A DNA stretch of 62,984 bases, the filler included, from Reclinomonas americana ATCC 50394 (taxonomy: Eukaryota), in NCBI GenBank assembly GCA_048213135.1. It is 6 parts of 4 records of this genome, joined end to end, with 100 filler letters (N's around TTAATTAATTAA, not from the genome) between each part and the next. Parts side by side here need not be neighbours in the genome. Positions count along the whole stretch, not along the records: positions 20,292 to 37,421 come from PS015184.1; 5 more parts are not named here. One strand, given 5' to 3'. Shown piece after piece: positions 7,361 through 58,660 of the stretch; positions within the stretch are counted from its first letter, which is position 1; every line of letters starts with the position of its first letter. The notes under the pieces are model-generated. The model saw nothing but the letters and a program-made list of their open reading frames with translations. It did no database searches and had not been told where the DNA came from. A program made the translations under genes and the position numbers.

Positions 7361-7868
7361 GTTGCGTTTTTTTTTTTTTTTTGGTGCCTCCTCNNNNNNN
7401 NNNNNNNNNNNNNNNNNNNNNNNNNNNNNNNNNNNNNNNNNNNNNNNNNNNNNNNNNNNNNNNNNNNNNNNNNNNNNNNNNNNNNNNNNNNNNNNNNNNN
7501 NNNNNNNNNNNNNNNNNNNNNNNNNNNNNNNNNNNNNNNNNNNNNNNNNNNNNNNNNNNNNNNNNNNNNNNNNNNNNNNNNNNNNNNNNNNNNNNNNNNN
7601 NNNNNNNNNNNNNNNNNNNNNNNNNNNNNNNNNNNNNNNNNNNNNNNNNNNNNNNNNNNNNNNNNNNNNNNNNNNNNNNNNNNNNNNNNNNNNNNNNNNN
7701 NNNNNNNNNNNNNNNNNNNNNNNNNNNNNNNNNNNNNNNNNNNNNNNNNNNNNNNNNNNNNNNNNNNNNNNNNNNNNNNNNNNNNNNNNNNNNNNNNNAA
7801 GGGGGAAAGGGGGAAGGGGGAAGGGGGAAGGGGGCAAAGGGAGAGAGGGGACAGTATTTCGGCACGTC

Positions 7869-8477: not shown

Positions 8478-10086
8478 TCATGTCGGTGCGGCGGCCGTGG
8501 CCGAGAGCGACTGCACGTCGCGTGCCGTGAACACCGTCTGACACGTGCTACACCGATCCATCTCGAAGCAAAAGACTGCACGTGGTGTCAGAGGGGGGCG
8601 GGGAATCGACAGACATGCCCACACTGCGACGCAACTCGACAAGCACACGGAGCACACAAAGCCGACATTGATTTTCCGCTTGTGGCAGAAGCAGGCGGCG
8701 CGGAAATCAACATCGCGCTCCTTGGGCAGCGCCTGGTGCGTCCGTGACTTGTTGTCGGACAGAAACACCGTCTGCAGGAGAGACAGAGCGTGAGCATCAC
8801 GATTCAAGCAAAGTGAGTGAGTGCGTGTAAAAGCGCACCAGCAGAAACTCGAGCAGATTGCCTTCGCGTGGCCTCAGGTAAATGCCGCTAGTGATGCTGG
8901 CGGCCTGTTGCAAGAAGCTCGAGTCCTCCGGACCCAGCACACACGCGTCGACAATCACGTGCTGGTGTAGCGAGTGAGGAGGGGGAAAGAGAGAGGAAGA
9001 GAGTTCGACAGCGACGCAACATTCTTGTCGGCGCTGAAAATGGCGTTCATGACTGAAATGTACTGCGACGGCACGTCGGGCGACGCCGTCAACACCAGAA
9101 CACGACACTGCGGCTTCTTGTGCGCCGTGCTCAGCGCTCGGTTGACATCTGTGGCCCATGCGTGAGCGAGCGAGGATTGAAGGCAGCACACGACCGTGGA
9201 ACGCAACAGCAGAGGGCACGAGAGAGCGCACACGACAGTTGAATGCCGAGCTGCGCCGAGGCGGAGCCATCGTCGGGCAGGCGAACCCGCCCGACAAACT
9301 CACGCACTTGCAGATGCAGGGCGGCGGGGTCGATCACCACGCCGTCGAGGTCGTTGGCAAAGTGAGCGAACTCGCTGTGCCGGAGGGGGGGAGTATGAGA
9401 ACAGGAGACACAGAAGAGAGAAGGCACAAAAGCCAAACACGAGTGACAGCAGGCGATAGAAGAGAAACGAGATGCCTAGGTCAAAGAGATGGAGATAACA
9501 GTGGCGACAAGACGGCGAGTTGAAATGTGAATGGGGAAGCAGATGAAGCATCAAAGTTGAATGTGAGAGCTCACGTAGACAGCAGTGACAGGCAGAGTGG
9601 CAATGTACTCCCTCTCTGTGTCTCTCCGTGAGCTCGACTACAACACGGAATGAGACATGTGATTCACACGCACAGTCGTTCCTTCTCTGTCTCCCTCTCC
9701 CTCCCCCTATCTCTCCCCCACCCACCATCCATCAAAGTCCGTCAGCAACAGCTGCAGGTGATTGCGCGGATTCAACAGCGCATACGAGCGCAGAAACACC
9801 GTCACTTGCTGCAAGTACGCGTCCATGGGCAGCACAGGCCACCCAACACCACCACCACCACTACTTCTTCCACCCACTCCACTCGCTTCATCAGTGGTCA
9901 GTGGAGGCACATGCACACCGGCCTCGCCGGCGTCGGTCTCCCAACTGGGTGCATTGACATCGAGAATGACGACAAGCAGCGAGGCATCTGTGTGTGTGTG
10001 TGTGTGTGCGTGTGTCGACAGCGATCAGCACTGATAGAGGAGAGGGGTGGGAAAGGCGCAGACAGTGTACCGTCGTACGTGGCCAT
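8478..10086 (-). CDS. GTF2H3: TFIIH subunit p34 (Tfb4)
   Basis: Spliced product MATYDDASLLVVILDVN...FLRSYALLNPRNHL...LSCALSRALCYVNR...QYISVMNAIFSADKNHVIVDAC...FLQQAASITSGIY...[28 protein letters not shown]...CSTC: vWA-like domain plus C4 zinc finger typical of Tfb4. Confidence 0.95.
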
Positions 10087-17429: not shown

Positions 17430-18984
17430 ATGAGCGCCAGCAGCTCGGATGACGAACGAGGTCAGGAAAGAATGAACGCTGTGTTTGTTTATGTGGTTTC
17501 TGGCTCGGTCTCAGTCTCACTTGGACCCTGCTCGCCATCATCATCATTGAGTAGTCTTCTCATCCTCTTGTGATCTCTCTCTCTCTCCCCGTGTGTTGCT
17601 CATCGTCCTTCTCTCTGTGCACCTGCGTGTGCTGCTATTGTCAACATGTCCACTTACTCACTTACTCACACACACTTTCGCCCTCCAGCAGGCGAGCCGG
17701 CAGCAGAGAGAGCAGAGGTGGACGATGGCGCGCGTCAAGTTGCATGCACTTTATACCTCGTCGCGTGTGTGATCATCAAACAAGCACTCATCTGACGACT
17801 GCTGCATGCATGCATACAGTCACGAAAGCGCACTCGCGACGACGACGACGACGGCGATGGCAGTTGCAGCGATAGTGATCGCGATGGCGACTCTCGCATG
17901 CGACAGAGCAAGCGAGACTCTCCTTCTCCGTCTCCGCCTCCTCAGCCTGCGCGACGCAAATCGCGCTCGCCCTCACGCTCGCCAGAGCGCAAACGACAGC
18001 GACGCAGTGGCAGTCGTGATCGCCGACCATCGCCGGCTTCGTCTCGCTCGCGTTCACGCTCCCGCGAGCGCGATCATCGCCGGCAACCGCGTCGACATCG
18101 ATCGCGTTCACGGAGTCCGTACTCGTCTCGTCGCCGTCGCAGCAGTCCCGACCGTCGCCGTCGCCACCGCTCGCCAAGTCCTCGGCGGCACTCTCAGTCA
18201 CCACCGCGACGCGCTCGTACTCGTCGCGAAGGCATTGTTGCGTTCGCTGTTTCCCCTGTCGTGCGTGCTCTTTCCTCACGGTCTCACGCATTTCCACAGC
18301 CAAGCCCATGCAACGTTCTCGGTCTGTTCAATATCAACCCGCGCGCCTCGCAAAAGGAGGTGGAGGAGCTGGTGAGCAAGTACGGTGAACTGGACAAGAT
18401 GTTCTTGATCATGGACCGCCAGGCACGTCGCATGTGTGTGCCCGCTCCCCTTCTGCTGCTCACCACTGGCACACACAGTCTGGTCAATCGCGAGGCTTTG
18501 CTTTTATTTACATGCGCAATGTGGAGGAGGCCACCAAGGTGAAGGATAATCTTGGCGGCATGACATACATGGGTCAGTTGCTGCGCTGCGATTACTCGTT
18601 GACCAAGCGGCCGCACTCACCAACACCCGGCCGCTACATGGGCGAGGCTACGTCGTCGTCGCGTCGAGCGTCGAGTCCTCGCAGCTATCGCGATCGCGAG
18701 CGTGACCGTGACAGGGACCGTGATCGCGAGAGGGCCAGGGATCGCGACAGGGACCGCGATCGCGACAGGGATCGCGACAGGGACCGCGATCGCGACAGGG
18801 ATCGCGACAGGGACCGCGATCGCGACAGGGATCGCGACAGAGACCGTGATCGCCGCCGAGACCGCAGTCGTGATCGTGATCGTGGTTTGTCATTCTCTGT
18901 GTACTCCACGAGTCTGCCGTCAGTGCTGCCCCCTCAATTTCGGTGCGTCATGTGCACTCTGCAGGTCGCAGTTCTTCTCGCTGA
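17430..18984 (+). CDS. TRA2: Transformer-2-like SR splicing factor (RS domain, RRM, RD repeat)
   Basis: RS-rich region, then PSPCNVLGLFNI...KYGEL...IMDRQ|SGQSRGFAFIYM...LRCDYSLTKRPHSPTPGRYMG (Tra2 linker motif) and an RD dipeptide tail. Confidence 0.88.
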
Positions 18985-19407: not shown

Positions 19408-22400
19408 TCATTCGGCCTCCGAGTGAGTGCCGCTACCAAAGGTGGCCGCACCATCGGCATTTGTATCTACACCCATTTGCACCATCACGTCCGTCTCGTG
19501 AACCTCCTCCTCCCCCCGTGGTCGAGACGATGAGTGTCTGCTGCTGCTGCCGCTGTCCCACTCTCCAATGTCTTCAGAAGCCGCGGCCGAAACCACCGCT
19601 GCGGTTGATGTCGTGGTTGCGGTAGCCGTCGCCGATGGTGTTGTGTCCAATGGCACCGTCGATTGCGCCGCGGCATCGGCGGCGGCAGTCGAGCGTTCCG
19701 GAGGGCCCGCACGGAGTGATTCGACTCGAAGACCGAGCGCATCCAGTCCCTGATCGACTTCCTCCTCCTCCTCATCGTCGTCGTCGTCGGACGTATTCTG
19801 ACCGGTGTCGGCGTCAAAGTCGATTGGAGTCGGGTGATCGAGGTTGAGTGGGATCTTTGCTGACGATACACAGCTGTTGCCGACGCGCAGCAGCGGGCGC
19901 GACGAGGGACTGCCAGGCGACTCGGGCGACGAGAGTCCGTGCGGCGAGTGCAAGTCGCCATCGCCGTCGGCCGCCGCAAATTCGAGATGCGTGAGTCCGC
20001 GCGCCGCCTTGGTGGACGACACGAGGAGGCCACGTGCCGAGCTCACACTCATAGAGCTGTGATGCGACGCAGTGTTGGCGCTCTCCACGTCGCTGTCCAA
20101 GAAAATGTCCGCAGCGTGGACATGTGGGGGCCGGCGCCCGCCGCCGTCTCTTCGGTTCTGGCGAGCTCGGCGCGCACACCAACCACGCTTCNNNNNNNNN
20201 NNNNNNNNNNNNNNNNNNNNNNNNNNNNNNNNNNNTTAATTAATTAANNNNNNNNNNNNNNNNNNNNNNNNNNNNNNNNNNNNNNNNNNNNACGGCCAGC
20301 CAGATGACGGTGGTGATGGCGGCGAGACCCAAGAGTGGGAAGATTACGGCCTGTGGCGGAGGAGAACCATGAGCAAGAGTGCGAGAGAGAGAGAGGAAGG
20401 GATGGCGATACATACCAATGCAATCTTCCATGCCGCCACCGAGTCCACCACGAGATTCTCGAGAACCGCCAGCGAGCTAGTGCCGACAGCAACATACTCG
20501 GTGGTGCCAGCAAACTTGATGCACATTCGCAGACGCGTAGCGTCGTCCACGTAGGCGGTCACTATTGTTTGCCGCCCGTCAGCCGACGTGTCTGCAAGGG
20601 AGCACGAGGTGAGCTCGTGCAATGTCGACGACAACAGTGACACGCACACAGTCCGCAACTCAAGGTGCCGAGCACAGCGGTCGGATACGAGGCCACTTGC
20701 GCACCGCTGCATTGCGCCAAGAACGGCGCCAACACCAGCGTGTCTGAAGACGACAAGCCAAAGCCGCTCACCGTGAGCGACGTGGAAATGTGGGCGAGAA
20801 CACTGTCGGGCGAGAACTCTGCGCGCGCATACGCCTCATCAGCAAGGAGACAAAGAGGCACAGATGTTGCGGCAAGAACAACGAGCAACGCACCGCTGGC
20901 GTGCGGTGGTTGCACGGAGAGCGACTGCTGGAGCATGTTGTACTGCGAGAAGCCTTCGTGACGGATGCAAACCTGCAGGGGCGCACAACAAGTGAGAACT
21001 CGTTTGTAGACTGCGTGCAAGCACCTCCCTGTGACGCAACGACGTAGTTGCCCGAGTTGGCAAACGAGGTCTGCACCGTGAGAATGCTGCCCGTTGCATC
21101 CACGGTTCTTGCACTCGACAGCACCACACCCGCCGCCATGACGGGCGCCGGTTGGCACGGATTGGCGACCACACCACCGGCCGACACAATCGACAAATCG
21201 GCGCCTGAAACAGAGAAGGAACAAAGCAAAGTGGTGGTGAGTGTCGGCATGCCGCGACTGGCTGCGCTGCGCCAGCAAATCACCTTCTCGCAAGGCATCG
21301 CCCTGAATCGTCAGTGTTGTCAGCCGCACAGCCGACTGCACAATCGAGGTGGGCGAGACACTGCGCGCAGACGGAGCTGCTCGGGAACCGATGATGAGAA
21401 AGGCTGATCGACGATGCGACAACAGGATCGGTAATGACGCAACTGACGGCAACCACTGAGCCCGGCACGGAGGATACTTGGGGCGCGCCGCTGGCACTGC
21501 GGAAGGAGACGCAGAGCACGTACGAGGCGGCTTTGGCGGGGGTCACAGGGACCTGCGAGAAGGGAAGGGAGGTGGGCAAGGGGGAGAGGGGGGAGGGAGG
21601 AGAAGGGAGGTGGGCAAGGGGGGAGAGGGGAGGGAGGAGAAGGGAGGAGACGGGAGGTGGGCAAGGGGGGAGAAGGGTGGGAGAAGGGGGAGGTGGGAGG
21701 AGGTGGTAGCATGCGAAGAAAGCAGTGAAGCAACGAGGCAGTGGGGGAACAAAGACGGTCGAGTAATGTCGAGGTCGAACGAAGCGAAGAGCGCCTTGGT
21801 CACGGAGATGAACGGAGAAGAAATGACGATGTATTCGCGGCGAGCGACCGAAAGGAAGAGAATAAAGAGAAATCTGAAATCTGAGAAGCCTTCAGCCAAC
21901 TGCTCACTTGCCAAGGAGGAGGGCAAGCGAGAGAGAAATACAACAAGACAGAGGTATCGACGCACTGATCGCGAGTGGGCAGAACGAAGATTGAGACAAA
22001 ACACACACAGGGAGAGAGAGAAGCAAACGACCAACTATACGCTGGAGGGCAAGTGAAAAAACACAAGCATCAGCGTGTTACATGGTGACGCGCAGATCGA
22101 GAGTGAGAGAGACACAATACGCACAGGGAGAGGAAGAGAGAAACGATCGAATACAGAAAAAGTGCACAACCAACTGCTCACTTGCCAAGGAGGAGGCAAG
22201 TGACAGAATGAGAAATAACAAAACGGAAGCTTCAGCCAGCATGTCTTGATCGCAAATCGGCCAGACACATATTTAGAGAGAATAGCGACGAGTGAACGCA
22301 CTTTCCCCCTCCCTTTCCTATCATTGCCCTTCTCTCCTCCTCCAACTTACCACAAGATTCGACGTATCGGGGTCCACTTGCGCCTGCCCGACAGTCACTG

Positions 22401-25400
22401 ACGATGAGCTGCTGGTCGCGGTCTCGCACAACCCTGCCGACGATGACGACCGCGGCTGAGCAAAAGGTACAAGAAAAGGATGAGTTTTCCACGACTGGCA
22501 GGCACATTTCATGCACTCCTCTCTCACCGTCGAAGGAGACTCGCTGGGGTCAATGACCAGCACCGAGTTGAAGGCGCTCAATGCGGTACCTTGCACGGAA
22601 ATGAGATTTACGGTGTTGACAGCCAGCGGTCGCGTCATCACCGACACGACGCGTGGCGCTGTTGTTGCCAGAGTTCCCTTTAGAATGAGAGAGACGAATG
22701 CAAGAAGTATTTTCGTCCAGCGCAACTGTCGACAACAAGAGCCGGACTACCATCGCTGCCAATCGCATTGTATGCAATGGCTCCCCGCGCACGATAGCAC
22801 ACAATGTACTCGCCACGTTGCGTGACAGTCAATGTCATGCGCAGTGCGGTCGTGCTGCCGTCGTCAATCGCGGGTGAGAATTGCACATCCGTTGCTGGAT
22901 TCACATGCTGCGCAAGTCCCAGACGAGACACAGTCAGTCTGACAAAGAGTCGGTGGCACGCACGCACGAGTGCAAAGTTACAAGTCGCACCTGGCCAACG
23001 CAGTCACCGGAGTCGGACACCAGCGCCACCTCGAAACCAGGCTGTGACAGGAATTCTCCCACGATCACAAAGGTGGTCGGGATGGCCGGAGCGATCGATG
23101 CAGGCCACACGCGGCTGACAGTCCCCACTGTGGAGGCAGGAGGGAAATGGAAAGGGGTGGTGAGAAGAAGGAGGGACACAAATGAAGGAGGAAGCCAGAG
23201 GACATCCTGCAGAGAGGAGGCACAAAGCAGAGAGTGAAAGAGGAAAAGGACACAGGGAATGAGTGACACGTGGCACAAAGAGGAAAGGCGGCGCAGCACA
23301 GAGTGGAAGAGAGAAATGTGAGAAGAAAGAAGGACACGGGGCACAAAGGGGAGGGGGGCAAGAGATGGGACAGGGTAAGAGAGAGAGAGAGATGCATGAG
23401 GATCAAGGACAAGTGCGCAACGAGGAAGGAGGTGCAGAGGTTAAAGAGGAGAAAGTGGCCCCATGGTGGAAGGGAAAAAGAAGGAGGCAAGAGATGGGAC
23501 AGAGAGGAAGAGAGATGCATGAGGATCAAGGACAAGTGCGCAACGAGAGAGGAGAAAGTGGCCCCAGGGTAGAAGGCACAAAGGGGTAGTCGGCAAGAGA
23601 GGGGAAGATGACAAGGAAGGACATGTGTCACAAAGAGGAACGAGGTGCAGCGGCACGAGATGGGAGAGGGCACAACGAGCCATCACAGGCGTTGTAAGCA
23701 CGAACCTTTTCCCACCAGCGATCCAGCTGCCACGGGTTGCAGGCCATCCTCGCCGTCGACCTCAATGCACATGATGAATTGACCGGCTCGCTGAAGAGGA
23801 AAAAGCGATGAGTGAGCCTGTGCGTGAACGTATGAACATCGAGAGCAGCATCACAACAGCACCGGAAGCGTGACATCGACGACCAGTGAATCGTCGTCCT
23901 GGTCGCGCGGAACCAGCAGAGACAGATCGGCAGGCTGTCATCACACAGCAAATATGAGGCGGCGCAGACACAAACAAGAGATGAACACCAGGAAGCAAAT
24001 TAAGCGACAGTACCGGCGACATTGTCGCAGCCGAGCATGAGGAATTCGAGGGAATCACAGCCACACGCGTCACCGACGTGAGCTGGGCGCCAAAAACAGT
24101 GACCGGCACCGCCTTCAGTACGCCAATGATACTCGGACGGACGCCCGACGTGACCGTGGCTGCGTTCGACGAGACAAGTGAGCCACACAGTTGAAGCACA
24201 CGGAAAACGAATGACGGAACCTTGAAGGGTCATCAATCCGTTCGCAACCGGCGAATAGTCAGTGCTTCCAAAGAACCGCACGCACAGCTGGTAGGTCGCA
24301 CCGATATCATCGTTGACGGCCATACTGCAGGTGGGGAACGAATGAGAGGATGGCCGGAGGCGGCAACTGACAAAGGGAGAGAAAACGCAACGTGAACAAA
24401 AACGATTTGCCCAGCAGCTCCAAATCGGTCAACGTCACCGCCGGGTCACTGACTCCTGTCTTGCACGAAGTACCCGACTTTACTGCAATGATGTCGTTGT
24501 CCGTGGGACTGAGGTTGGTGCCACTCGCAGTGACAACGGTTCGTGCACGTGGGACGAGGAAGAGTGGCGAGACTGAGTTGACGGTCGGCACTGCAGCACA
24601 AGCAAGTCGGACAGTCAGTCTATGAAGAAGAAGATGCGTGATTTGACATCGGGGTAGTGCGCAGCACCTCGAACGAGCAAGCCACCGTTGACGACCGGTT
24701 GAAACACGGCAGAGCCGGAGAATCTATCGAGGTACAAAATGTGAGCAATCAACAGCTCGACGCGCAACGAGCCTCGCAATGAACGTACGCACCGGATGCA
24801 CAAGACAAATGGCTGAAGGGAGAACTGGACAGTTACCGGCAGCGTGATTTGCGTGTCGGTGACAGAAGTAAAGGCGCCGGTCGATGCCTTGGCGGTCGCA
24901 GGTGGTGACTCGCGGTTGCACACCGTGTTTGCATCTTGGGTGCCGTCGCTGACCACCACTTGCGTGGCAGCACGCAAGCGCGTTCCCGACAACGTCAAGA
25001 CCGTGGTGACCACAATGGGTACTTGGTTGGTACCGGTCAGCGAGGCAGAAGGGACCGGCGAGATCAAATCTGCGAAAGAACAGTCAGCTGGCGGCGGTAT
25101 CAAGTCGCCAAGGAGGAGAACACACTCACGCACTTTGAACATCAAAGGGGCCGCCGACCACGTCGCGGAATGGCTGGCCCGACAAGAATGCGTACCTGCG
25201 ATGAAAGAGGGGGAGAAAAGTGAGATGCAGATAGAGGAGACGTGCACAAGAGCAAGAGAAACAGAGGGAGGCAGCGAAGAGTCCAAACGCAGAGAAGAGA
25301 AAACAAATTGGTGGGGGGGGGGGGGGGGGGGGAAGGGTTGACGGCAGCGCGGAGAGGGAGGAAGTGATTCGACGAGCAAAGGACGGTTCAAACACAATCG

Positions 25401-28400
25401 ACAGAGCGAGAGACACAATAATCCATGGGCGAAGACGGCTTGATGGCAGCGCAAGATAGCATGGAAGTGATTCGACAATTAAAGGACGGTCCAAACACAA
25501 TCGACAGAGTGAGAGAGAAAATAATCAATGGGCCGAGAAGGCGTGATAGAGACTCGACGATCATCGAGAGAGGGAGAGAGATAGAACAATCACTGGGCGA
25601 AGACGGCTTGATGGCAGCGCAAGACAGCACGGACGTGATTCGTCGATCATCGAGAGAGGGAGGGAGAGAGATAGAAAAATCAACGGGCGGGGAAGGCTAG
25701 ATGGCAGCGCGGAGAGCGAGAAGGTGATTTGACAGTCCCTTGGCGCATCGAGCACTCACCGAATGCAAATGCGGAACGACGCAATAGTGCTTCCAGTGGT
25801 TACGGGGACCACCATCAAGGAGCTCGACAGCCGCGCAGACCCCAGAGTGATGGAGGCGGCTGGCGTTGGTGACAGAGAGTTGCACGTAGATGCGGCGGGG
25901 ATAACCACCAGCGCATCATTAACACTCAGCCCGATACCTGGCACGTCAATGCAAGGGGGAGGGAGGCGAAGAAGGACGGGAGGGGGAAGGAGAGGAGCGG
26001 GCAAGACAAATAGAGGGAGTGGGAAGGGACAAAGAAGGAGAGGAGCGCACGGGAAGAGGAAGAGAGCGAGAAAGTCGGAATGTGAGCGACGACAAAGGCG
26101 CAAAAACACCCTGAGAGGCACGCACGCACCATCAATAGTGATTGAAGTGGTCGACGAGGGAGCCAGCAGCGTCGGCCAGTAGCGCAACGTGGACACCTCT
26201 GAACGACGACGTGATCAGTCAGTTTGTGCGAGGAGCCTCAAGAGCATTTCCTTTTTTTGAGGACAACAAACCAGCGAGACGAATAACGCCAGTGGTGACT
26301 GGCTGGAACACGGCCGTTGCGCCACCGGACGAGAAGCGAACGCACACTGCAGCAAGGAAGTGAGTGACGAGAGAACCGTGTGTATCAACAAACATGCACG
26401 CGACAGCACCTTGGTAGGAACCCGCGCTGCCGCTCAGAGCCACTGTCATCGTGGCAAAAGGCTGCGGAGTCATGGCGCCCACCATGACGGTCGACACTGG
26501 CGGCGCCGTGGCACAGTCGCTGTTGAGTTCGACCACTTTAACTGCGTCACCCACAAGGAACCCGTAGCCGTTGATGGTGACCACCGTTGCGCCGACATTA
26601 CTCTGGATCACCGACGGCGACAGGAAATTGCCTCCGTACGAGATGACAATGCCGCCGGAGAACTGAACATAGTCGGAAGTGTCGGTCAGCTTGATGCAGA
26701 CCGAGTAGATGCCTGGCGTGCTGATGCTGAGTGGCACAGTGAGAGCTTCCAGCGACAGCTGCTGCACAATGCCCACGGTGGCCGCGTCAGGTGCGCCGGA
26801 ACTGAGGTCGCAGCCGGAGCCCGCTGCCACCACACGCACGGGCATGGTGTCGTACAGTCTGCGGATGGAACATGAGAAAGAGGCGGAGTGGGGTGGGGGG
26901 TGGCGAGAGAAGACAACAGCAACACACCCGAATCCCTTGACGGTGACTGTGGAGACACCAATCGAGGAGATGGAGGTTGGCGAGAGGCCCGAGGCGCCTT
27001 GAATGTACAGCGTGCCGGGAATGGGCAGGAATGGCAAAATGCCCATGCTAGCGCACAGCGTGTAGGCACCGGCAGAGGCAGAGGGTGTGAAGGTGAAGGT
27101 GACGGAGGTGGTGCCGGTGAGGGTGCGAGTGCCTGGAGAGGGGAATGAAGGAAAGGGGGAATGAGGAAAGGGGGGATAAAAGGGGAAGGGCGGAAGGGGG
27201 GGAAGAGGGGAAGAGGGGAAGAGGGGAAGAGGGGAAGAGGGGAAGAGGGGAAGAGGGGAAGAGGGGAAAGAGGGGAGTGAAAAGAGATGAAGGAAGAAGA
27301 TGAGACGTGAGAAGGGACGAGACTGTGGGCATAGGGAGGAGATGAGAGCGAGAAGAAACAGCGGAAGAACAGAAAGATAAGGAGAGCGAAAAGGGCAGGA
27401 CAGGGCAAGGTGAGATATGGCGAGCAGGAAGCGGATGCGACCAACGAAGTAGAGCAAAGGATGCGAGATCGAGGAAGGGGATGGAGACGACGATGGGAGA
27501 GGGACAACAGAAGGTGGGGGAGAGTAAAGAGGAACGAGATTGACAGGAGAGATTGAATAGAAGGGCGAGTTACGCTGTGAAGAGAAGAACAAAGAGAACA
27601 GAGATGAAAAGAGGAAGGATAGTGGAGAGAGGAAAAACAAATGGCGAAGAGAAAAGCGGTGATAGTGGGAGACAGTGAGGTCAATCGACGAAAATATGAG
27701 AGAGGAGAATTAAAGAGGAAGACATGCAAAGGGTATTTTCGTGCATAGCAGGCACGCACCGTACTTGGCGCTGGCTGTCACGAAGAAATCACAATCGAAG
27801 GGGCGCTGTACAAGTTTGAGTGAAATGTCGGCAGTCAAGCCAGTGCCGATGACGACCATGGTGGTGGTGGCTCGTCGCACAAACACCTGGGCAGCGGGTT
27901 GATTAGTCGCGCAACCAGAGAGTGGCGGTAGCAACGAGACGCACATTCGGTGACATTGATTTGAACGAGACATCTGCGATACGGTCAGTGAGTGCACGAA
28001 AAGATTAACTCACAAGCGATTGATGCGTCAACTCACCGACGACAGAAATCGTGGCACCGTTGTTCACGGGCACGTACACGCCGTCGCCGCCGTACCTACA
28101 TGCGCAACGATGAGTACGGCGCAGAAGCGAGAAAAAGAGCAATGTCCATATTCTCTCTTTGTGCCTCTCACGCAACGAGATGCACAGCGGATAGACGCCA
28201 GCAGTGGACGACGTCACGTTGAAGGCCAAGGCATCCGTCAACACATAGCCATCAACAATGACGGCTGGCGTTGCGTCCGCAGTGGCGCAGTCGCCACCGT
28301 TGTCAACCAGCTTTACCAAGTCGGAGGCCGACAGGAGCGCGCCAGAGAGTGTGATAACAGACCGTCGATTCAGCAGCACGGCAATCGGAGCGACAGATGT

Positions 28401-31400
28401 AACACCCTGTAATGTGCGCGCGTGCGTGCATGCGCAGGTGAGAAGCAGTCAGGGTGCCAATATGGAGATCATGGGGGACAGACCCTCACGTCGAACCCTC
28501 CGACACTGTTCCATGCGCCGTTGATGGCCATTCTGCGTGCGTGTGTGCTCACCACCATCAGCACATGCACCAAGCAAGGTAATAGATACTGCTAGATTTC
28601 AGCGCAACTTGATGCACACAGAGTAGGTGCCCACCGATGCAGCGGAAACAGAAAGACTAATCTGTGAGCCGTCGTCCGCAGTCGTACCGCTATCGGCCAA
28701 GGTGATGGATGTGGAGGCGGTGGCTTGTCCGTCGCAAGTGACGCCGTCGTCGACCACGAGGCAGGTGTCGTTGGGTGACAGGCCCACGCCTGTGCGAAGG
28801 GGGGAAAGGGGTGAGTGGAGAAGGGAGAGGGGAGGGGGAGGGGGAGGGGGAAGGGGGAAGGGGGAAAGGGGTGAAGGGGAAAGGGTAAAGAGGGGAAGAA
28901 GGGGAAAGAAGGGAAGGGAAGGGGGAGGGGAAGGGGGAAGGGGTGCAGGGGAAAGGGTAAAGAGGGGAAGAAGGGGAAAGAGGGGAAGGGAAGGGGGAAA
29001 GGGGGTAAAGGGGAAAGGGGAAAGGGGAAAAGAGGGAAGGAGGAAGGAAAAAGAAGAGAGAGGCGACAGAAGGGAGAGGGTGGTGCAGGGTAGAGAGGAC
29101 AAAGGGCCGAGAGGGTCAAAAGGAACGGGAAAGCGGGCGAAGAGACGAGGATCACGGGAGGAAAAGATGAAGATATCGGAGAGGGGGCAGATAGGGGGGC
29201 AAAGATACAGCATGGAAAGAAAGAGGGCGACGGAGAGAGCGGAAAGTAAAGTAAAAAGGAGTTGGCAAAGGGAGAGAAATAGGGAGAGAGGACGGAAACG
29301 AGAGAGCAGCAAGGAGAAACAAGGCCACTCACACAAATGCGTGACAATGACTGACAGAAAGACACAGAAACTGACTCTGCAGCGCACGCACACAAGAAAT
29401 GATGGAACAAACTAACCGCTAATAGTCAGCATGGTCTGCTGCTGCACGTTGACAACCGCGGGCGAGAGACCGAGGAGCAGAGGAGTCACGGTGAATACGC
29501 CGCTGCTGACGGCCGTGAAATCGGATGTGTCGCTGTCGCTGTTCACATACAGAGTGTGAGACGCTGCACTGGCGATCACCAAACATCCGTCTCCCTTCTC
29601 ACGCAACGATATGCACCACCGGAAGGTACCCACTGCGCTGGCAACCACCGACACGGTCGTAGTCAGCGAGTCCATATTGTTAAAGTCGCTCAGCGAGACC
29701 TGCACGGGTGCGGTGAGTGGCGCAGATTAGCAGGAGCAATATGCCAAGACCCAATGGCGAACCGAAGAATGCGCGTTGGCGGCGCAGGTGTCCGTGGCCG
29801 CCACGACTTTCAGCCGATCGGTCGGCGTCAGGCCAAAGCCGGCGATGGTGACGGTGGTGAGCTCGGTAACAGGGAAGACATTCGGCGTGGCGGATTTCGT
29901 GCCCTGCGAAGTGAAGATGATGAGCGGCCTCCCTCCCGCTGCGTGGTCAAGACAGAAACGTGTAACGCACCCGGAAGACAACGACACCAGCCGTGGCCCA
30001 CATCATACCCACGCTGAACCTGCACACGAAATGCACGGCTAAGCAGGGGCGCGGCACGAGATCACACAGGGCGGGTCCTCACGCAACTTGATGCACACCA
30101 CGTGCTGGCCAGCCGCAGAACCAGTTACCGACACGGTTGTCAGGGTGCCGTCGGGGAGAGTCGTCCGGTCCGCCGCCACCGCCACCGTCGGCGACATGAC
30201 GGCGTCGTCGTAGCAGGTGGAGGTGGAGTCGATGATGCGGATGACATCAGAGGACGACAGCCCGACACCTGTGAAGGATCGCCGATGAGCTGCGTGGAGA
30301 AGAATGCAATGAGGCAGTCGCTAGGCTGACCTCCCAGGTGCACGACCGTCTTTTCGCCAATGTAGAGCGTCGTCGGTTTGAGGGAGGTGATGATCGGGAG
30401 GACGGTGAAGGTGCCGCTGACGACTTTTTCGTAGGCAGATGTGCCGTCGATTCTGTGGAAAGGATGGGCGAAGGGGGGGTTAGGTGAGGGAGCGGGAAGG
30501 GGCAAAGGGGAGGGGGGATAGAGAAAGATGGGAGAAGGAGGACAAGGCTGAAAGGGGAGGGGGGAGAGAGGGAGAATGGGAAGCGGGAGAATGAGGGACA
30601 AAGAAAATGTTGGAGGAGAAGGTGGATAGGACAGGCGTGGGAGACGGTCTAACGGCGAGCCGGAGAGATGAGGGGCGCAGGGGGGGAAGGACGGAGAAGG
30701 AGGACAAGGCTGAAAGGGGAGTCGTGAGGGTGAGAGAGAGAGGGAGGGGGGAGAATGGGAGGAGGGAGAATGAGGAAGAAAGAAAGCTGGAGGAGAAGGT
30801 GGATGGGATAGGCGTGGGAGACGGGCCAACGACAAGCAGGAGAGATGAGAGGTGCATTAGAGAGAGAGAGAGAGAGAGAAAGAAAAAGAAAAGAAAAGAA
30901 AAAAGAGAGACATGGACGGCGATTGCGACCAAGTGAGAGAGATATCGAGAGGGGAGAACTGTTGGCTTCTTGCTCTACTGGCGTGCGTTTGTCTTTGTCT
31001 CTCTCTTTCTCCCTTTGTCTCTCTCTCCCCGTCTTTGACCAGAGGAAGATGAAGTGAGAAATACTGGAAGGGGGAGAATGGTGGACAGAGATATGGAGAG
31101 GGGGAGAAGAAAGGGTAGGAGAAAAAGAGAGACATGAGAAAGTGAGAGACAGTCATATACATGAAGTGGGGGAGGGCACGATGTCAGCAAAGTGTACGAT
31201 TCGGCCTGCGAGTTATGAAGATATACGAAAGGAATAAAGAACTGGGAGAGGTAGGCAGGGCGCAAGATAAGAGGACTGAGTGCAAGATTTTTGCGTTGCA
31301 CAGAAAGCGGCACAGAGTGTAACGCGTAGAGACACGTGACCACAGCCTGTCAACGCAACGATGTACACCACATGAAGTCTCCGACGGCACTGGCGGTCAC

Positions 31401-33523
31401 GGAGAGGGTGACTACCTGATGACCAGACCAATTTGAGGTGGTCACGACAACCTGCGCACACACCCCATGGTGAACACAGCGTGACTGCACGCAATCACAG
31501 TCAGTCGTTTACACACCGATGAGGACGCCGCGACGGCGCACGCCTGTGCGTCGTCCGACAACGGCACAGCTTTGAACGTGTCTTTCAAGCCCAGCACGAA
31601 CCCAGCAACGGTCACTTCGACCGGACTGAGCACTGCGAATGTTGTCGGTGTGGCTGACGTGGTACCCTGCGTGCACGAATTGTGAGAAGGTGTGTGTGTG
31701 TGTGTGGGCGAACAAGATCACACTGTGCGAAGCATACGGTACCTGTACATACACAACTCCATTCGGCGCAGGAACGGCCTCGTTGACGAACTCGAATCTG
31801 CATGCGCGTGGTTGGTGGCGTGCCAGCTTGTGATCTCAAAGTCAACACCACGCAACAGAATGCAGATTTGGAAGCCGCCGGCCGAACCGCCTGCTTGTAC
31901 TTGCACGTGGAATTCGGATATGCTCACATACTCAGCCGGGCCATCAGCCACCGCATACAGTGGCGTCTTGGCCGCTTGGTCGCAGGCGGCGCCCGCGGGA
32001 ACGGCAAATGCTCTGTCGTTGGACACCAGGGACCCTCCTGCAGATGATTTTCACTGCCAGTCAGCACGGAGAAGAATGACCAGCGGGGGAACTCTCGCGC
32101 ACCAATTACTGTTAGGGTGGCCACGGCATTGCGATCAAAGTAGATCGGTTGCACGCTGTACACCGAACCCCTCACCACAAACGGGCCGCCAGGGACCGGA
32201 AAGAAGATACCCACTCCTTGGTATCTGTGCGTGTGTCAGTGCAGGCTCTTTCCCTGGTTACTATGCTCAGCCGCCACTCAACTGCACACAGAGAATGAAC
32301 TGGCCGCGCATGTGCGACGACACTACCAGCTGCAGTGAGTCACCGCTTGCATTGGCGTTGACAATCATCGGCTCGTCAAAGCCGTCAGCCGTCGGTGAGG
32401 CGTTGCAGTCGTCGCCGTTGTTGACGACGCGGAAGTGGTCGAGGTAGCCGATCTGGGAGCCTGGTGGATTAAAGGGAAAGGGGGAGGGGGGGAAGGGGTA
32501 AGGCCGAGTGAAAAAAGCGAGAGAGAAAGAGGTGGGAGGGATGCTTGCGGATATGAGTGGGTGACAGCGAAGTGGGCAAAAAAGGAAATGAGGGCAACAA
32601 CGAGAACGGATGAGAATGACGTGAGACAGGAAGAAGGAGTCGTGAGATGAAAAATGGAAGAGGGGTAATGCGCGGGAGAAGAAGCGAGAGAGTAGAAGTT
32701 GTAGGAAAGTGAGATGAGGACGGGATGCTTGGCAACTGCAGCGGGTGAGAAACGTAGCGAGGTTGAGGAAGGAGGAAGGGAGATATTGAAAAAGGAGAAA
32801 GCACCGGCGAGCATTTGGTGAGTAGTTCAAGAGAAGCGGCAAAATGGTGAGACAGACAGAGGAACCCCGCACACGCGGTGACAGTCGATTAAAATGGGGA
32901 ACGTCCCCATTCGCTCATCACCGCACTCACCAGTCAAAGTGATTCTATCGAGTGAAAATGCACGAATAACGGTGGGCGCGAACGAGAACACCGATCCGCA
33001 TCCACCTGTCGAGAGTGTGTGTCAGTGAGCAGCAATACGCGCGGGGTAGCGAAAGATACCAGTGCGCGAACCCTGCAGACAAGAGTGAGTTCAAGAGGCC
33101 CATGAATCCAAGAGTATGGTCACTAGCGCGCAACTGAGGCCACGAGGATGCCCTGACCCGCCGGCGGGCTCACATAGTCGTCGGTGCTGCGCGAAACGAT
33201 CAGCACATGACCTCACGCACTGGATACAGAAGGCTCGCACGCAACAAGAGGCAGAGCTTGTATGTGCCGCCACATGAAATCACCAACGTCATTGTCATCG
33301 AGGTGCCGTCGTCGGCAAACACAGGTGTGTCGTTTTGGATGCCACCAAGGATTTCATTGTCAGAGCACGCAGTGCTTGGGTCCACAAAGTAGACGTATAT
33401 CGCCTCGGGGTCGATCACGTCGGCGAGGAAGTCGGTGCCTGTGAGGGGCGGGAAGGGAAGGGAAAGGGGGATGGTGGGGCAAAGTGAGAAGAAGAGGGAG
33501 GAGNNNNNNNNNNNNNNNNNNNN

Positions 33524-35110: not shown

Positions 35111-35116
35111 ACTTGC

Positions 35117-35590
35117 CGGTCGAGCTGCAGTCGTCTCCGAAGAACCCCTCGTCGCACACGCACTTGCCAGTGCTGTCGCAGTTGCCGTGGTTCGAGCACG
35201 TCATGTCGCGCTGGCAGTTGTTGTTGCACAATGTACCAAAAGAAAGACCGTTGCAGTTGCAGCTGCCGTCGGTATTGCAGGTGGCGCCATTGCCGGGGCC
35301 GGAGCAAATAGCCTCCGTGCACTTGACGTTGCACGTCGGGCCGTAGAAGTTGGCGTCACACTCGCAGTCGCCCGTGCCGCTGCACTGACCGCGCCCGCAG
35401 CACTTGGTCTGCGCGACGCACGATACGTCGCAAGCGGCTCCATACCACGGTTCGAAGCAGTCGCAGCCGCCGGTGACGTAGTTGCAGGTACCATGACCAT
35501 TGCAGGTGACCGAGGCGGTGCAGAACGTGCCGCAGTTGGCGCCGTGGAGAAACAGGTTCGCAGCAACCAAGTCGGCACAGATATCGGTGC
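35117..35590 (-). CDS. Internal exon of a tenascin/laminin-type EGF-repeat protein
   Basis: Four tandem EGF-like units (TCNGHGTC...CDCFEPWYGAAC etc.); 474-nt phase 1-1 exon if the donor is G|GCAAGT. Rest of the gene unresolved. Confidence 0.75.
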
Positions 35591-37421: not shown

Positions 37422-39294
37422 NNNNNNNNNNNNNNNNNNNNNNNNNNNNNNNNNNNNNNNNNNNNTTAATTAATTAANNNNNNNNNNNNNNNNNNNNNNN
37501 NNNNNNNNNNNNNNNNNNNNNGGGCTGCTTGGATGTGCAGCTGATGCCACGGCACACACGAGAATCAATTGAGCAGCGAGTCAGCGACACCTCACACCTC
37601 GGATCGACCCACAGCGAGGTTGATGAGGGCACGATGATGGCACAAGGAACAGGAGAGGAGAGACCAGCATAGCAGCACAGCGATGGAAGAGGCAGCTGTG
37701 TTGTGAGACTAGTACTCGCCTCCCTCTCACCCCTGGCCAGGCACAATCAACCTCGTGACTTCAATCACACTCACAGTCAGTCGGTGAATCGTCTCATGCA
37801 TGTACTGTGAGGCACAGAACCACGTGTCTTCGCGCATGCCAGTAACTTGCCAGCACGCCTATGTTCATGGCACACACCGAACTGAGTCAGTTGATCTCCG
37901 AGTCTCATCAACTTTCTCCTCAGTGCAGATACAGAACACGCACGCACCATGTGTTGCTGGCTGAGCATGCGTCTAAAGTCACCCATGGCCACCACCATTG
38001 TCACCTGGCAGTGACAGCAGCAACCAAGGTGTGCACATCATCGATCCGCTCCGACTTGCCAGCCGGGATTGAAAACGATCCNNNNNNNNNNNNNNNNNNN
38101 NNNNNNNNNNNNNNNNNNNNNNNNNNNNNNNNNNNNNNACGGACCAGGCCATCCATCGCACATCACGGCACGCATGTGTACACCCACCCAGCCATGCACT
38201 CCTTGACGAGCACGGCCTGCATAATTGAGGTGAGTGGGAGAAAAAGAGGAAAGAAAGATCACGCCGAACAAGTCCACACACCTGCATCGTGCATCGGTGG
38301 CATTCAGGTGTGGAGCCGACTGAGTGAGGTGACAGCCGGCAGCGGGCGATGCACAGCACGCCTGCAATCATTACGGAACAACGAGGGGGACCTGCTCCTA
38401 AGGTGTCTGCATGTCGGTACACTGTGAGCGAAGAATGGAGGAAGGAGAGAGATATCTGCTCTGTCTCACGTGACAAACACACCGATCAGCACCTGATACC
38501 AACACACGGGATCGGTCAAGAGGCAAGCCAAGGGACGGTTCTGCACACACATCCATCCTACGAGAGAGAGAGAGAGAAAGAGAGAGAGAGCAGAGTCAGC
38601 ATGCAGTCATGCCACCTCACACACTTCGGCATCGGGAAGCTCACCATGATGGACTGGCAGGATGGCAATCGGAACACGGTGAGCGGACCAGCATGTTCGG
38701 CCTTGAGCGAATGCGGGAAAGAGGGGCGGATTACTGGGGAAGCAGATGAGCGCACAAAGGCAGGGAGATGGCGGAGAAAGAGAGAGAGAGACTCTGTAAG
38801 GTACAGAGAGAGAGAGAGAGAGAGCGGAATGACATGCATTCTTAAGCTTCAGAGTCGGAAGGAGAATGTCCGCGGCGCACAGGCAAAATAGGAAGCACAG
38901 CAGTGATGACAAAGTGGTGCGCGAAAGAAGACGCGAGAAAACAGACGTCGTTGACTCGCTCTCCTGAGGCACATACATGCACGACTCATGGCGCAAGCAC
39001 AACAGACATCACAACGAGACAACAAACGCAAGAGACTCCCAGGTGATTCACCGAGCATGCACACAAAATGGAGGTGAGAAAGAGACACGCACACAGAGGG
39101 AGACATGCTTCACGACCGCAGACTATCATTCACATGAAAGGAGAACAAGCACAACAACGACCTCTCTCTCCTCCTCTGTCGTCCTCTCTTCCCCCACCCA
39201 CGCCCACATGATCACCCACTCTCCCCCGCAAGACACGAAAAAACAACTCACGATCACCAGCAGCCACCGCTCTCCCACCCTTTGGCTCACCTTC

Positions 39295-40143
39295 TCAGCA
39301 CCGGAAAAGGACGACCTCGGCATCCTCGACGATGAAGCAGCGCAGAACCAGCTCGGGAAGACACAGTGAATCTACTTCATCCTCGGTGGCACTCCGCTCC
39401 TCCTGCATCTCCTGCACAGCTCGCATGGCCGAGCGCGCGGAGTCGAGTTCGAAGCCAGCAAGGCCACGCGGCGTGGACCGCACTCGCACGGTCTCGTCGT
39501 AGCCACCCGCGCTCACAATGTGCTGACCATCGGGAGAGACGGCCACAGACGACACCCATCCAGTGTGTCCCTCCAACTTTCGTACTTCCTCGCCGCCACT
39601 CGCCAGAGACCACATCCGCACGGTGCTGTCCTCGCTCCCACTCACGACATGCTGGCCGTCGGGAGTAACAGCNNNNNNNNNNNNNNNNNNNNNNNNNNNN
39701 NNNNNNNNNNNNNNNNTTAATTAATTAANNNNNNNNNNNNNNNNNNNNNNNNNNNNNNNNNNNNNNNNNNNNACCTCCTCCCCACTCGCCAGCGACCACA
39801 CCCGGATGGTGCTGTCTCCACCGCCACTCACGATGTACTGACCATCGGGGGTGACGACGACACAATACACCCATAAAGTGTGTCCCACCAGCCGTCGCAC
39901 CTCCATCCCACTCTCCAGCAACCACACACGTAGGGTGTTGTCTCCACCTCCACTCACGATGTGCTGGCCATCAGGGGTGACGGCGACAGACCACACCGAA
40001 CCAGTGTGTCCATCCAGTCGTCGCACCTCTTTGCCACTCGCCAGTGACCACACGCGAATGATTCCGTCCACACACCCACCAACAATGTGCTTGCCATCGG
40101 GAGTGACCGTGACGGATCCCACAACAGCGAGACTCTGAATGAT
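39295..40143 (-). CDS. WD40-repeat protein with highly similar 42-aa repeats (3' part; split by a linker)
   Basis: Repeats GHTGSVWSVAVTPDGQHIVSGGGDNTLRVW etc., followed by a unique helical/acidic tail ending at 39295. Confidence 0.8.
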
Positions 40144-41245
40144 CTGTGCCGATCATTCGCGGTGAGACGCACATGTACACACAGCAGCGACATTCGAAGA
40201 CACGCACATGCACAAACAACTGCCGCACACATGCACAAGCACACGAATGCACGCACAGACACCAACCACGCAAAAGTGCGCACACATTCACACCTTTGTT
40301 GCCATTCTCCGTGTGTGCGCGCGAGAAAGAGAAAGAGAGTTTGTGTGCGTGTGTGTGTGTGTGCTCGTGTGTGTGTGTTCGTGTGGGTGATGTGTTATGT
40401 GTGAACTGATTCATCCGACGGAACATCAACATCAACTCTCGCGCGTGCGCGTGCGCCTCGCGGTGCCGTCTGTGTCTCAGTGCCCCCTGTCTCTCTGCGT
40501 CCCCGTCGTGGTGCTCCATTCTCAACCAGCAATGTGAGCGAGATGTTGCGGCATTGAATGTGAATGCATGCATGCATATTCGGAGCCTGTTCATCTCGCG
40601 ATCGACACGCCATGAGCATCACTTCCCTCTGAGCCACGCATGTGGGTCGGGTGGAGAGGCAACACCACACGATTCAGAAAGAGAGCGAAGAAGCAGCGCA
40701 GTTCGTGAGTGGTGTGCGACAAACCAGTTGTCAGGGCACACACGCACGCACGGGAAACGAGTGCGCAGGGCAAGTGCACTCTCTCTCCCCGTGGCGTGTG
40801 TAACGAGAAGAGTGGCCATCTGAATCGATGCCTGACGCGCTCTCCATGTTCACGCGGTGCCAGTGTGAGAGGGGGAGGCGGGCGATGATGCCACTTCAAA
40901 AAGCTGCAGCTGCAGGTTGGCATCTCCACTGCGTTCGAATGACAGGGCGAAATGAAGGCACAAGCACAAGGCGGGTGTGGGTGGGAGAGCGAGGACTCGC
41001 TCAACGCCGAGCAGAACGCGTGTCTGTTCATTCCATGGTCTCATCTCAATCGACCACACACACATCCATCGCACTCGGCATGCTCTTCTTGCAATCCCAC
41101 TGCACTGCACTGCAATGTGCTGTATTTGCTTCCCGGCTGCCTGCACTTGGCAAGGCAGTGGAGAAGCACGTGTGAGGCGGTGTGGCTGTCAACACGACAG
41201 AGTTGCGCGCATTGACAGCCATCGGTCTTCGCATATTCATTGAGC

Positions 41246-41554
41246 TCACTCCGTCCAGCACCATGCAGGCGCACGGCGTTGAATCACCTCTGCATCCTCC
41301 AGCACAAAACACCGCAGCACAACATCGACCAGGATCCAGTCATGGTCGCCGTCTTCTTCGGCAAGCAGCTCGTTGACGGCCAGCACGGCGGATTGTGCGG
41401 CCGCAAGCTCTTGCCCCGCCAGCCCACGCGGCGTGGACCACACTCGGATCGTCTCGTCCCGTCTGCCACTTACGACGAGCTGGCCATCGGGGGTAACGAC
41501 GACAGAGTATACCCATCCAGTGTGTTCCCTCCAACCGTCCAACACTGTGCGCAA
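41246..41554 (-). pseudogene. Paralogous WD40 fragment (last repeat plus tail), apparent frameshift at its 5' side
   Basis: HTGWVYSVVVTPDGQLVVSGRRDETIRVWSTPRGLAG...VLRCFVLEDAEV parallels the 39295 gene end; an extra A in GAGGGAACAC breaks RLEGH (could be a homopolymer error). Confidence 0.5.
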
Positions 41555-42339
41555 CTGGAACGAAAGGAAAGTGAGAAGAACCAATCAGATGAGAGAGTGG
41601 GTTGTGCAGCAAGGGGACAGACATCGGCGAACGGGATGCAATGAGGGGAATGAGAGAGGAGTAGCGTGCTGCAATTACGTGGGTGCAAAAAGAAGAAGAG
41701 AAGAGCGGGTAGGCACAAATCGGAGTGGGGAGGAAGAGGAGAGCAAGCGANNNNNNNNNNNNNNNNNNNNGTTCTCTCCTGTGTCAGCTGAGCGCTCTTC
41801 AATGGCTTCCCTTTCAATGCCTCCCTCCTGTCTTCATCGTCCGCTTCTCAAGATCCGCCCTGTTCTCTCTCCTTCCTGTCATGCACTTGCATTGTTCATG
41901 CCTCCGTGCGCCCTCTCTCTCTCTCTCTTCTCGTCTCGCATTGTTCTGCTTCGTGTCGATTGAGGGATGCTTGCTCGTCACTGTGCCGCGTTCCNNNNNN
42001 NNNNNNNNNNNNNNNNNNNNNNNNNNNNNNNNNNNNNNNNNNNNNNNNNNNNNNNNNNNNNNNNNNNNNNNNNNNNNNNNNNNNNNNNNNNNNNNNNNNN
42101 NNNNNNNNNNNNNNNNNNNNNNNNNNNNNNNNNNNNNNNNNNNNNNNNNNNNNNNNNNNNNNNNNNNNNNNNNNNNNNNNNNNNNNNNNNNNNNNNNNNN
42201 NNNNNNNNNNNNNNNNNNNNNNNNNNNNNNNNNNNNNNNNNNNNNNNNNNNNNNNNNNNNNNNNNNNNNNNNNNNNNNNNNNNNNNNNNNNNNNNNNNNN
42301 NNNNNNNNNNNNNNNNNNNNNNNNNNNNNNNNNNNNNNG

Positions 42340-54514: not shown

Positions 54515-58660
<4,146 letters not shown>

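Follow-up and report, generated by a model that had tools for sequence, protein, structure and literature searches.

In a 63-kb window of the Reclinomonas americana ATCC 50394 genome, two classes of 5′ splice site (donor) very probably occur side by side, the class in use being tied to the last base of the preceding exon. The window, i.e. the whole stretch of DNA analysed (62,984 nucleotides (nt), filler included, from assembly GCA_048213135.1), was studied in five genes, namely a giant repeat gene and the genes for Tfb4 (TFIIH p34), TRAP-beta (translocon-associated protein beta), a TRA2-like RRM protein and AAR2, and all positions count along its full length. Ordinary donors (class 1) follow GTG(C/A)GT loosely, whereas shifted donors (class 2) start with GTTG-N-G; a slash after an exon base marks the cut, and H stands for any base but G. 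Among 57 hand-curated donors, 23 (∼40%) are shifted and 34 ordinary, and the exon ends in G before 1 of the 23 and 30 of the 34, respectively (Fisher p = 8.8e-11). A first-pass annotation of this DNA had tied donor class to the −1 base on ten introns of the repeat gene. That link is real and wider than had been claimed, holding over 57 donors and five genes, but the rule is not absolute, as five donors depart from it.

Two donor words with one fixed G

The intron side of the two classes differs markedly in its constancy. All 23 shifted donors read GTTG-N-G and 19 are exactly GTTGCGT, with T at +3, G at +4 and G at +6 in 23/23, C at +5 in 22/23 and T at +7 in 19/23, whereas ordinary donors are loose (G+3 22/34, C+4 19/34, G+5 24/34 and T+6 19/34). 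An invariant core in class 2 opposite a loose class 1 fits compensation for one lost pair. Seen from the exon, ends other than G are followed by a shifted donor in 22 cases and by an ordinary donor in 4. In the repeat gene alone, exon-final G precedes 0 of the 14 GTTG-N-G donors (−1 base: A 7, C 5, T 2) and 27 of the 31 others (p = 1.8e-8), although the effective sample is smaller than the 45 introns of this gene since many of them are homologous copies. The 14 shifted introns are spread over phase 2 (nine), phase 1 (three) and phase 0 (two). The four other genes taken by themselves give the same picture, with exon-final G before 1/9 shifted and 3/3 ordinary donors (p = 0.018); the shifted share is 3 of the 4 donors read in Tfb4, 5/5 in TRAP-beta, 1/2 in the TRA2-like gene and 0/1 in AAR2.

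The base composition around the cut suggests a simple relation between the classes. Position −1 of class 2 (A8 C9 G1 T5) matches position −2 of class 1 (A9 C12 G2 T7; G versus non-G, p = 1.0), and both classes can be written from a fixed G as G-[G/T]-T-G-C-G-T, that G being the last exon base in class 1 and the first intron base in class 2. The exon-final-base rule of the first-pass annotation would thus be a by-product, as the recognition word itself contains a fixed G.

The shifted word is also strongly enriched. The window contains 35 copies of GTTGCGT where 7.95 would be expected; a count as high as 35 arose in 0 of 100 shuffles, and curated donors account for 18 of the copies. All nine sense-strand copies within the repeat gene are curated donors and none lies inside an exon. 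Three further copies, each after an A, stand where long open frames or predicted exons end, at 2218 (plus strand), 47694 (plus strand) and 55749 (minus strand); they are probable shifted donors of three more genes outside the curated set. An exon-chaining program run over the whole window predicted 60 introns, many of them antisense, and is noisy outside the repeat gene; in this noisy prediction, GTTG-N-G donors outside the repeat gene follow a non-G base in 6 of 7 cases.

The repeat gene and the placement of its junctions

The curated part of the repeat gene (20300..33438, minus strand) consists of 46 exons and 45 introns with an open frame of 5783 nt and no stop. It encodes 19 repeats (R1–R19), the number already given by the first-pass annotation, of 64–116 residues each and typically ∼95 residues. 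The model was built with the exon-chaining program, followed by reading of problem regions and a final coordinate list. Hand curation was needed because both exon-chaining runs, one motif-blind and one with a donor matrix blind to the −1 base, made errors: the in-frame intron at 29607 was read through, one exon was missed and GTTG was over-called at 31757.

A phase-2 intron had been reported to recur at the conserved Cys of the repeat, and the curated model bears this out: ten introns fall in one alignment column, all in phase 2 and all splitting the second codon after the Cys, and the ten donor strings quoted for them are exact to the base on the minus strand. The intron is present in 10 of the 19 repeats, with a shifted donor in R1–8 and an ordinary donor in R12–13; the other nine repeats are without it. 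Shifted donors open the introns of repeat 1 (33187..33245, TT/GTTGCGT, phase 2, 59 nt), repeat 2 (32225..32282, CA/GTTGAGT, 58 nt), repeat 3 (31798..31856, CT/GTTGCGT, 59 nt), repeat 4 (30453..31359, TC/GTTGCGT, 907 nt, the sole long intron of the shifted class), repeat 5 (30020..30087, AA/GTTGCGT, 68 nt), repeat 6 (29539..29607, TC/GTTGCGT, 69 nt), repeat 7 (28533..28608, AA/GTTGCGC, 76 nt) and repeat 8 (28096..28176, TC/GTTGCGT, 81 nt), while ordinary donors open those of repeat 12 (25196..25759, CG/GTGAGT, 564 nt) and repeat 13 (24724..24792, CG/GTGCGT, 69 nt). Counted by exon-final G, shifted and ordinary donors in this column split 8/0 versus 0/2 (Fisher p = 0.022), which is weak on its own because the repeats are related. 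In repeat 5 a second acceptor AG lies 6 nt downstream (30013-30019), the two products being ...CIK-FSVG... and ...CIN-VG..., and the intron at 29539-29607 is in frame and free of stops, such that its retention would add 23 residues and leave the protein unbroken.

As a motif-blind check on the junctions, 433 frame-compatible GT/GC-AG alternatives were scored with a hidden Markov model (HMM) of the repeat. The curated junction comes out on top in 34 of the 45 introns and in second place in 3, with ranks between fourth and seventh in the remaining 8; among the 14 introns with shifted donors it is first in 10. For the ten introns at the Cys position it ranks first in seven (29607 in repeat 6 among them), second in two (33245 in repeat 1 and 28608 in repeat 7) and seventh in one (30087 in repeat 5, of 15 candidates). 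Score gaps are at most 2.4 bits and are confined to variable linkers. The check carries moderate weight only: it is partly circular, as the curated repeats themselves served to build the HMM, and linker sequences vary.

Outside the Cys column, the repeat gene holds six more shifted donors, all on the minus strand. Four of these rank first in the HMM check: C/GTTGCGT inside repeat 14 (24385..24391, phase 2), A/GTTGCGT in the linker of repeat 18 (21437..21443, phase 1), C/GTTGCGT a single codon ahead of the repeat-18 Cys (21034..21040, phase 0) and A/GTTGCGG in repeat 19 (20653..20659), for which T/GTGCGT 12 nt downstream is an alternative. A/GTTGCGC in the linker of repeat 17 (22720..22726, phase 1) ranks sixth of ten. 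The last, A/GTTGCGC in the linker of repeat 2 (33128..33134), is uncertain as it depends on a predicted 13-nt microexon at 33060-33072 (minus strand) with flanking introns of 62 and 54 nt; the microexon is predicted because without it the frame would not carry on from the exon that ends at 33135 to the one that starts at 33005, and a GC donor placed 7 nt downstream of the curated 33134 cut is the alternative to it.

Four ordinary donors follow a base other than G, all in the repeat gene on the minus strand: AAT/GTGCGT at 27939..27944 and A/GTGCGTGAGT (A/GTGCGT) at 25133, both ranked first by the HMM, C/GTGAGG at 28489, ranked fourth of four, and an ambiguous case at 26280 that stands as in the curated model.

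The sharpest placement of the cut comes from the conserved genes, whose exons were searched as unaltered window sequence. The Tfb4 segment (8629..9207, minus strand) holds three shifted donors, at 9207 (T/GTTGCGT), 9020 (T/GTTGCGT) and 8635 (A/GTTGCGT), and one ordinary donor at 8838 (G/GTGCGC). At 9020 the exons meet at residues 187/188 of human p34 (28jm_F) and at positions 172/173 of Pfam PF03850, and the next junction maps to 228/229. In the TRAP-beta segment (6642-7367, plus strand) all five visible donors are GTTGCGT, at 6731 (C/), 6863 (G/), 7035 (C/), 7208 (C/) and 7361 (C/). The exons flanking the 7035 donor correspond to PF05753 positions 50-81 and 83-114, the split codon being 82, and those flanking the 6863 donor to positions 29-48 and then 50 onwards, the split codon being 49, where the first match is weak (E = 0.046). 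Colinearity with these protein profiles confirms a cut at the GT of GTTGCGT, with single-residue precision, for three junctions of Tfb4 and TRAP-beta. A further shifted donor, T/GTTGCGT in the TRA2-like RRM gene (18237..18243, plus strand), is placed by frame continuity and an RRM_1 match and is not profile-validated. That gene's following intron, which splits the RRM, is GC-AG (CAG/GCACGT at 18423, plus strand). A PDB search with two short Tfb4 exons returned no match, nor did the AAR2 frame in a protein search restricted to longer proteins, and a metagenome scan with the AAR2 exon yielded no relative.

These junctions bear directly on the reading that the introns start 3 nt later, as GC-AG (or GA-AG) introns cut at GTT/GCGT with the GTT exonic. 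Such a cut would preserve the frame, and at several introns, among them 33245, 29607 and 28176, its HMM score differs from that of the curated junction by no more than ∼1 bit. It would, however, add one residue at each of the three Pfam-colinear junctions, one of which is also colinear with human p34, and on this ground we exclude the downstream GC donor there. It would further require a GA donor at 32282 (GTTGAGT) and an invariant exonic GTT in all three phases, so that as a general account it is very unlikely. A cut 5 nt downstream (GTTGC/GTGAG) was also considered and rejected: at 29607 no frame-compatible AG exists for it, and it is absent at 31359, 28608 and 32282.

Possible class switches and selection on the donor word

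Both classes are found at more than one homologous position of the repeat. In the linker (alignment columns 23-25, phases 0 and 1), R9, R14, R15 and R16 end the phase-1 exon in G with ordinary donors, R17 and R18 end it in A with shifted donors, and R13 has A/GTGCGTGAGT. For phase 0 in this same column, R4 and R6 have G and ordinary donors and R2 has A/GTTGCGC. At a Gly-codon position shared by five repeats the exon-final base is always G and the donor always ordinary. The shared intron positions therefore obey the exon-final-base rule with the A/GTGCGT of R13 as the sole exception, and this implies three class switches or more, provided that introns sharing a position are homologous. H/GTGCGT (27944 and 25133) and G/GTTGCGT (6863) are plausible intermediates between the classes. 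An intron before the Cys codon is G/GTGCTG in phase 1 in R11 (26409) and C/GTTGCGT in phase 0 in R18 (21040), with an offset of 1 nt at both ends, and in this pair the intron may have slid by one base as its donor changed class.

The interconversion of classes put forward in the first-pass annotation is thus supported in so far as both classes occur at three homologous positions. The number of events, which a repeat phylogeny had been expected to reveal, does not follow from the tree: none of its 16 inner branches is supported, the median end branch is 1.78 changes per site (saturated), and R12 and R13, which are adjacent and both CG/GT, are sisters in 40% of 200 bootstrap trees. At the Cys position a single switch event may suffice.

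Below the donor word, the introns have diverged completely. Pairwise identity among the 23 class-2 introns falls from 0.94 over positions 1-7 to 0.25 over positions 8-45, and among the eight homologous ones at the Cys position from 0.93 to 0.26. A retained heptamer in front of random intron bodies, in repeats that are themselves saturated, argues for selection rather than recent copying, and in this respect the earlier proposal that selection maintains the two classes is supported.

The same values weigh on two historical explanations. Were shared descent the only cause, the eight GTTG donors would all derive, through repeat duplication, from a single ancestral intron and the link to the exon base an accident of two lineages. 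The layout is in keeping with such copying, as the shifted donors sit in the contiguous R1-8 and the ordinary ones in the adjacent R12-13, exon sizes of 122/181 nt recur in R3, R5 and R7 and suggest duplication of a two-repeat unit, and the tree cannot tell one event from several. Random identity of the intron bodies (0.26) beside 0.93 in the heptamer speaks against it, as does the recurrence of heptamer and rule at six other positions of the repeat gene and in three other genes, and we regard shared descent alone as highly improbable. Spread of a mobile introner family ending in GTTGCGT would account for class-2 introns being mostly short and alike (13 of the 14 in the repeat gene measure 58-81 nt). 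Yet ordinary short introns span the same range (54-89 nt), no similarity extends past position 7 (0.25), and no flanking duplications were seen in the sequences read, although no dedicated repeat search was made; this is the least probable of the explanations weighed here. U12-type introns, whose donors have the consensus RTATCCTT, were rejected as a further candidate, since 0 of the 23 class-2 donors resemble a U12 donor.

Several features of the repeat gene and of the window stand apart from the donor question. Intron sizes in the repeat gene are bimodal, with 36/45 introns of 54-89 nt and 9/45 of 115-907 nt. The long introns (27130-27760, 28790-29420, 30480-31350 and 32470-32930, minus strand) are rich in pyrimidines on their sense strand and contain many short tandem repeats, and one of them contains GGGGAAGA-type tandem units on the plus strand at 27180-27260. 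Beyond an N gap the gene runs on upstream into EGF-like exons near 35112-35498, and exons upstream of the repeats match EGF_2 and Teneurin-like EGF in Pfam; for the ∼95-residue repeat itself Pfam holds no family. An AlphaFold model of a 76-residue single-exon repeat is all-beta with a mean confidence score (pLDDT) of 73.6. Searched with Foldseek against the PDB, this model gave no match at E ≤ 0.001 (best E = 0.72), the weak rows being mainly Ig-like or filamin domains. A 150-residue repeat exon had no match in a protein search restricted to longer proteins, and in a protein atlas search all scores were below 0.8. A WD40-repeat gene at 39298-41584 (minus strand) carries near-identical tandem WD repeats interrupted by assembly gaps. 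The 100-base gaps at 20192-20291, 37422-37521, 39673-39772, 55117-55216 and 59809-59908 each consist of 44 N, TTAATTAATTAA and 44 N. Such a six-frame stop linker serves to join contigs, so the window is a stitched pseudomolecule; neither the order nor the orientation of its parts can be relied on from one side of a join to the other.

How the heptamer may be read, and known systems

The two classes could be served by a single recognition heptamer, G-[G/T]-T-G-C-G-T, with the cut made before its first GT. With G as second base the first G would stay in the exon, and with T as second base the first G would open the intron. The 5′ terminus of U1 small nuclear RNA (snRNA) would bind the heptamer in one register for both classes, so that in class 2 this register lies one base off the cut site, and the cut itself would be set later, at the GU, by U6 and U5. 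We think that such a shifted U1 register probably underlies class 2, though with considerable reservation, and we infer that U1 is the reader, that it is shifted rather than bulged and that the pattern would extend genome-wide.

The standard U1 5′ end is ACUUACCU. Pairs were counted by hand against the standard 5′ end AUACUUACCUG as in PMC4856993, which may not be that of R. americana itself. Against it, a class-2 site forms 5 pairs and 2 mismatches in the shifted register and ∼3 pairs in the canonical one. A number of points weigh against the mechanism or against the data on which it is built. In the shifted register class 2 makes no more pairs than H/GTGCGT read canonically, and has one mismatch more; because the pair count with standard U1 is not better, the large excess of class 2 after non-G bases (22 curated) over H/GTGCGT (2 curated) is left unexplained. 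At +4/+5, where A would pair better with the two pseudouridines of standard U1, class 2 has a fixed G and C. One curated class-2 donor follows a G (G/GTTGCGT at 6863 in TRAP-beta). Two class-2 junctions do poorly in the HMM check, 30087 coming seventh and 22726 sixth. The curated donors were chosen by hand, in ambiguous linkers partly by recognisable donor words, though never by the −1 base. Every junction is derived from frame, repeat homology or profile colinearity, and the donor sample covers 63 kb and five genes. Either pairing of the G with U1 C9 (or a reading of that G by something else) may outweigh the pair count, or the reader may differ from standard U1.

The alternative within standard U1 is a bulged register, in which U1 pairs with G+1 and U+2, the U at +2 or +3 bulges, and GCGU pairs one step further on. 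Bulges at +3 (or +2) are documented for human donors (PMC4856993), and this register would retain both pairs adjoining the cut site. It would also leave the last exon base facing U1 C9, where a G is expected, and G is seen in 1/23 class-2 donors as compared with 30/34 in class 1; the composition at −1 in class 2 is instead that of position −2 in class 1. Moreover, the bulge would come at an extra cost and gain no pair over H/GTGCGT, yet class 2 is ∼5 times commoner after non-G (22 versus 4). As the predicted G preference at −1 is not seen, we consider the bulged register unlikely.

A non-standard reader has a better, if still tentative, claim. Here the U1 5′ end would be altered to match GGUGCGU/GUUGCGU, with G and C replacing the pseudouridines, or another factor would read the site; either would be compatible with a single register for both classes. 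The near-fixed G+4 (23/23) and C+5 (22/23) of class 2, together with C+4 as the commonest base in class 1 (19/34), point in this direction, given that standard U1 prefers A, and so does the preference for class 2 over H/GTGCGT, for which standard-U1 pair counts do not account. On the other hand, few eukaryotic RNA sequences are as conserved as the U1 5′ end, and GC-rich algae with donors rich in GTGCGT are reported to retain the standard U1. In the window an Rfam search gave 0 matches at the gathering score, hence no snRNA gene, and a tRNA scan found no tRNA.

More speculatively, and with more doubt than we attach to a non-standard reader as such, the lineage could have re-tuned donor recognition to the word GGUGCGU/GUUGCGU, with a U1 5′ end that co-evolved by G and C replacing the two pseudouridines. 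In that case about two-fifths of the introns would be cut one base upstream of the usual place in the register, and replacing the G at the second base of the heptamer by T would be enough to shift the cut by exactly one base, which amounts to built-in one-base intron sliding; the introns of R11 and R18 (26409 and 21040) may be an instance of it. The choice of the cut site after U1 binding has so far been studied mainly on a few rare human sites and engineered constructs. Here shifted and ordinary donors appear to stand side by side in the same genes, with either form at paralogous and orthologous positions, and would offer many matched natural test cases for how loose the link between U1 register and cut site may become in evolution. 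For annotation, gene finders trained on a single donor matrix would mis-score ∼40% of the curated donors, whereas GTTGCGT is a near-perfect donor predictor in the repeat gene.

In open-access papers and preprints, searched without their figure logos and supplements, no account of a genome with one shifted word in many introns was found, and full-text searches for GTTGCGT and GTTGCG/GUUGCGU returned only primers and unrelated RNAs; the genome paper of the organism may nevertheless contain a description. The closest parallel is in human U2-type 5′ splice sites with a shifted register, which Roca and Krainer reportedly described in 2009, with an extra U at +3, U1 pairs shifted by one position and the cut at the GU. 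The class-2 donors are likewise GT-AG, carry an extra U after the GU with the consensus resuming one base later, and are cut at the GU, as judged here from protein homology. They differ from the rare human sites in abundance (23/57 curated donors) and in the near-complete exclusion of exon-final G that accompanies the shifted word. All validated noncanonical U1 registers together account for an estimated 1.5% of 201,541 human donors (PMC4856993). The core also differs, being GCGU here and an AAGU-type oligonucleotide for the human shifted register in that same text (PMC4856993). For human U1, the shifted register and the bulge at +3/+2 are both described there as established (PMC4856993). Class 2 shares with the human bulge donors the extra nucleotide after the GU, but not their expected G at −1 (here 1/23).

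In ordinary donors, lack of the exon-end G calls for a stronger intron side at positions +3 to +6. An association of exon-end G with +5G is described for ordinary donors (PMC8283771). The class-1 exceptions after non-G resemble such compensation, since they include two perfect GTGCGT and one GTGAGG. What sets R. americana apart is that non-G exon ends are mostly met by a discrete second word with an extra T rather than by a stronger ordinary donor. Finally, noncanonical splicing throughout a genome is reported for the tunicate Fritillaria borealis, whose authors count a shifted U1 register among the possibilities (PMC13326754), the nearest mention that the literature search turned up. A large share of nonstandard donors is common to both systems; however, most F. 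borealis introns are of types other than GT-AG and no register is settled on for them, whereas the introns described here are GT-AG and share one fixed heptamer.

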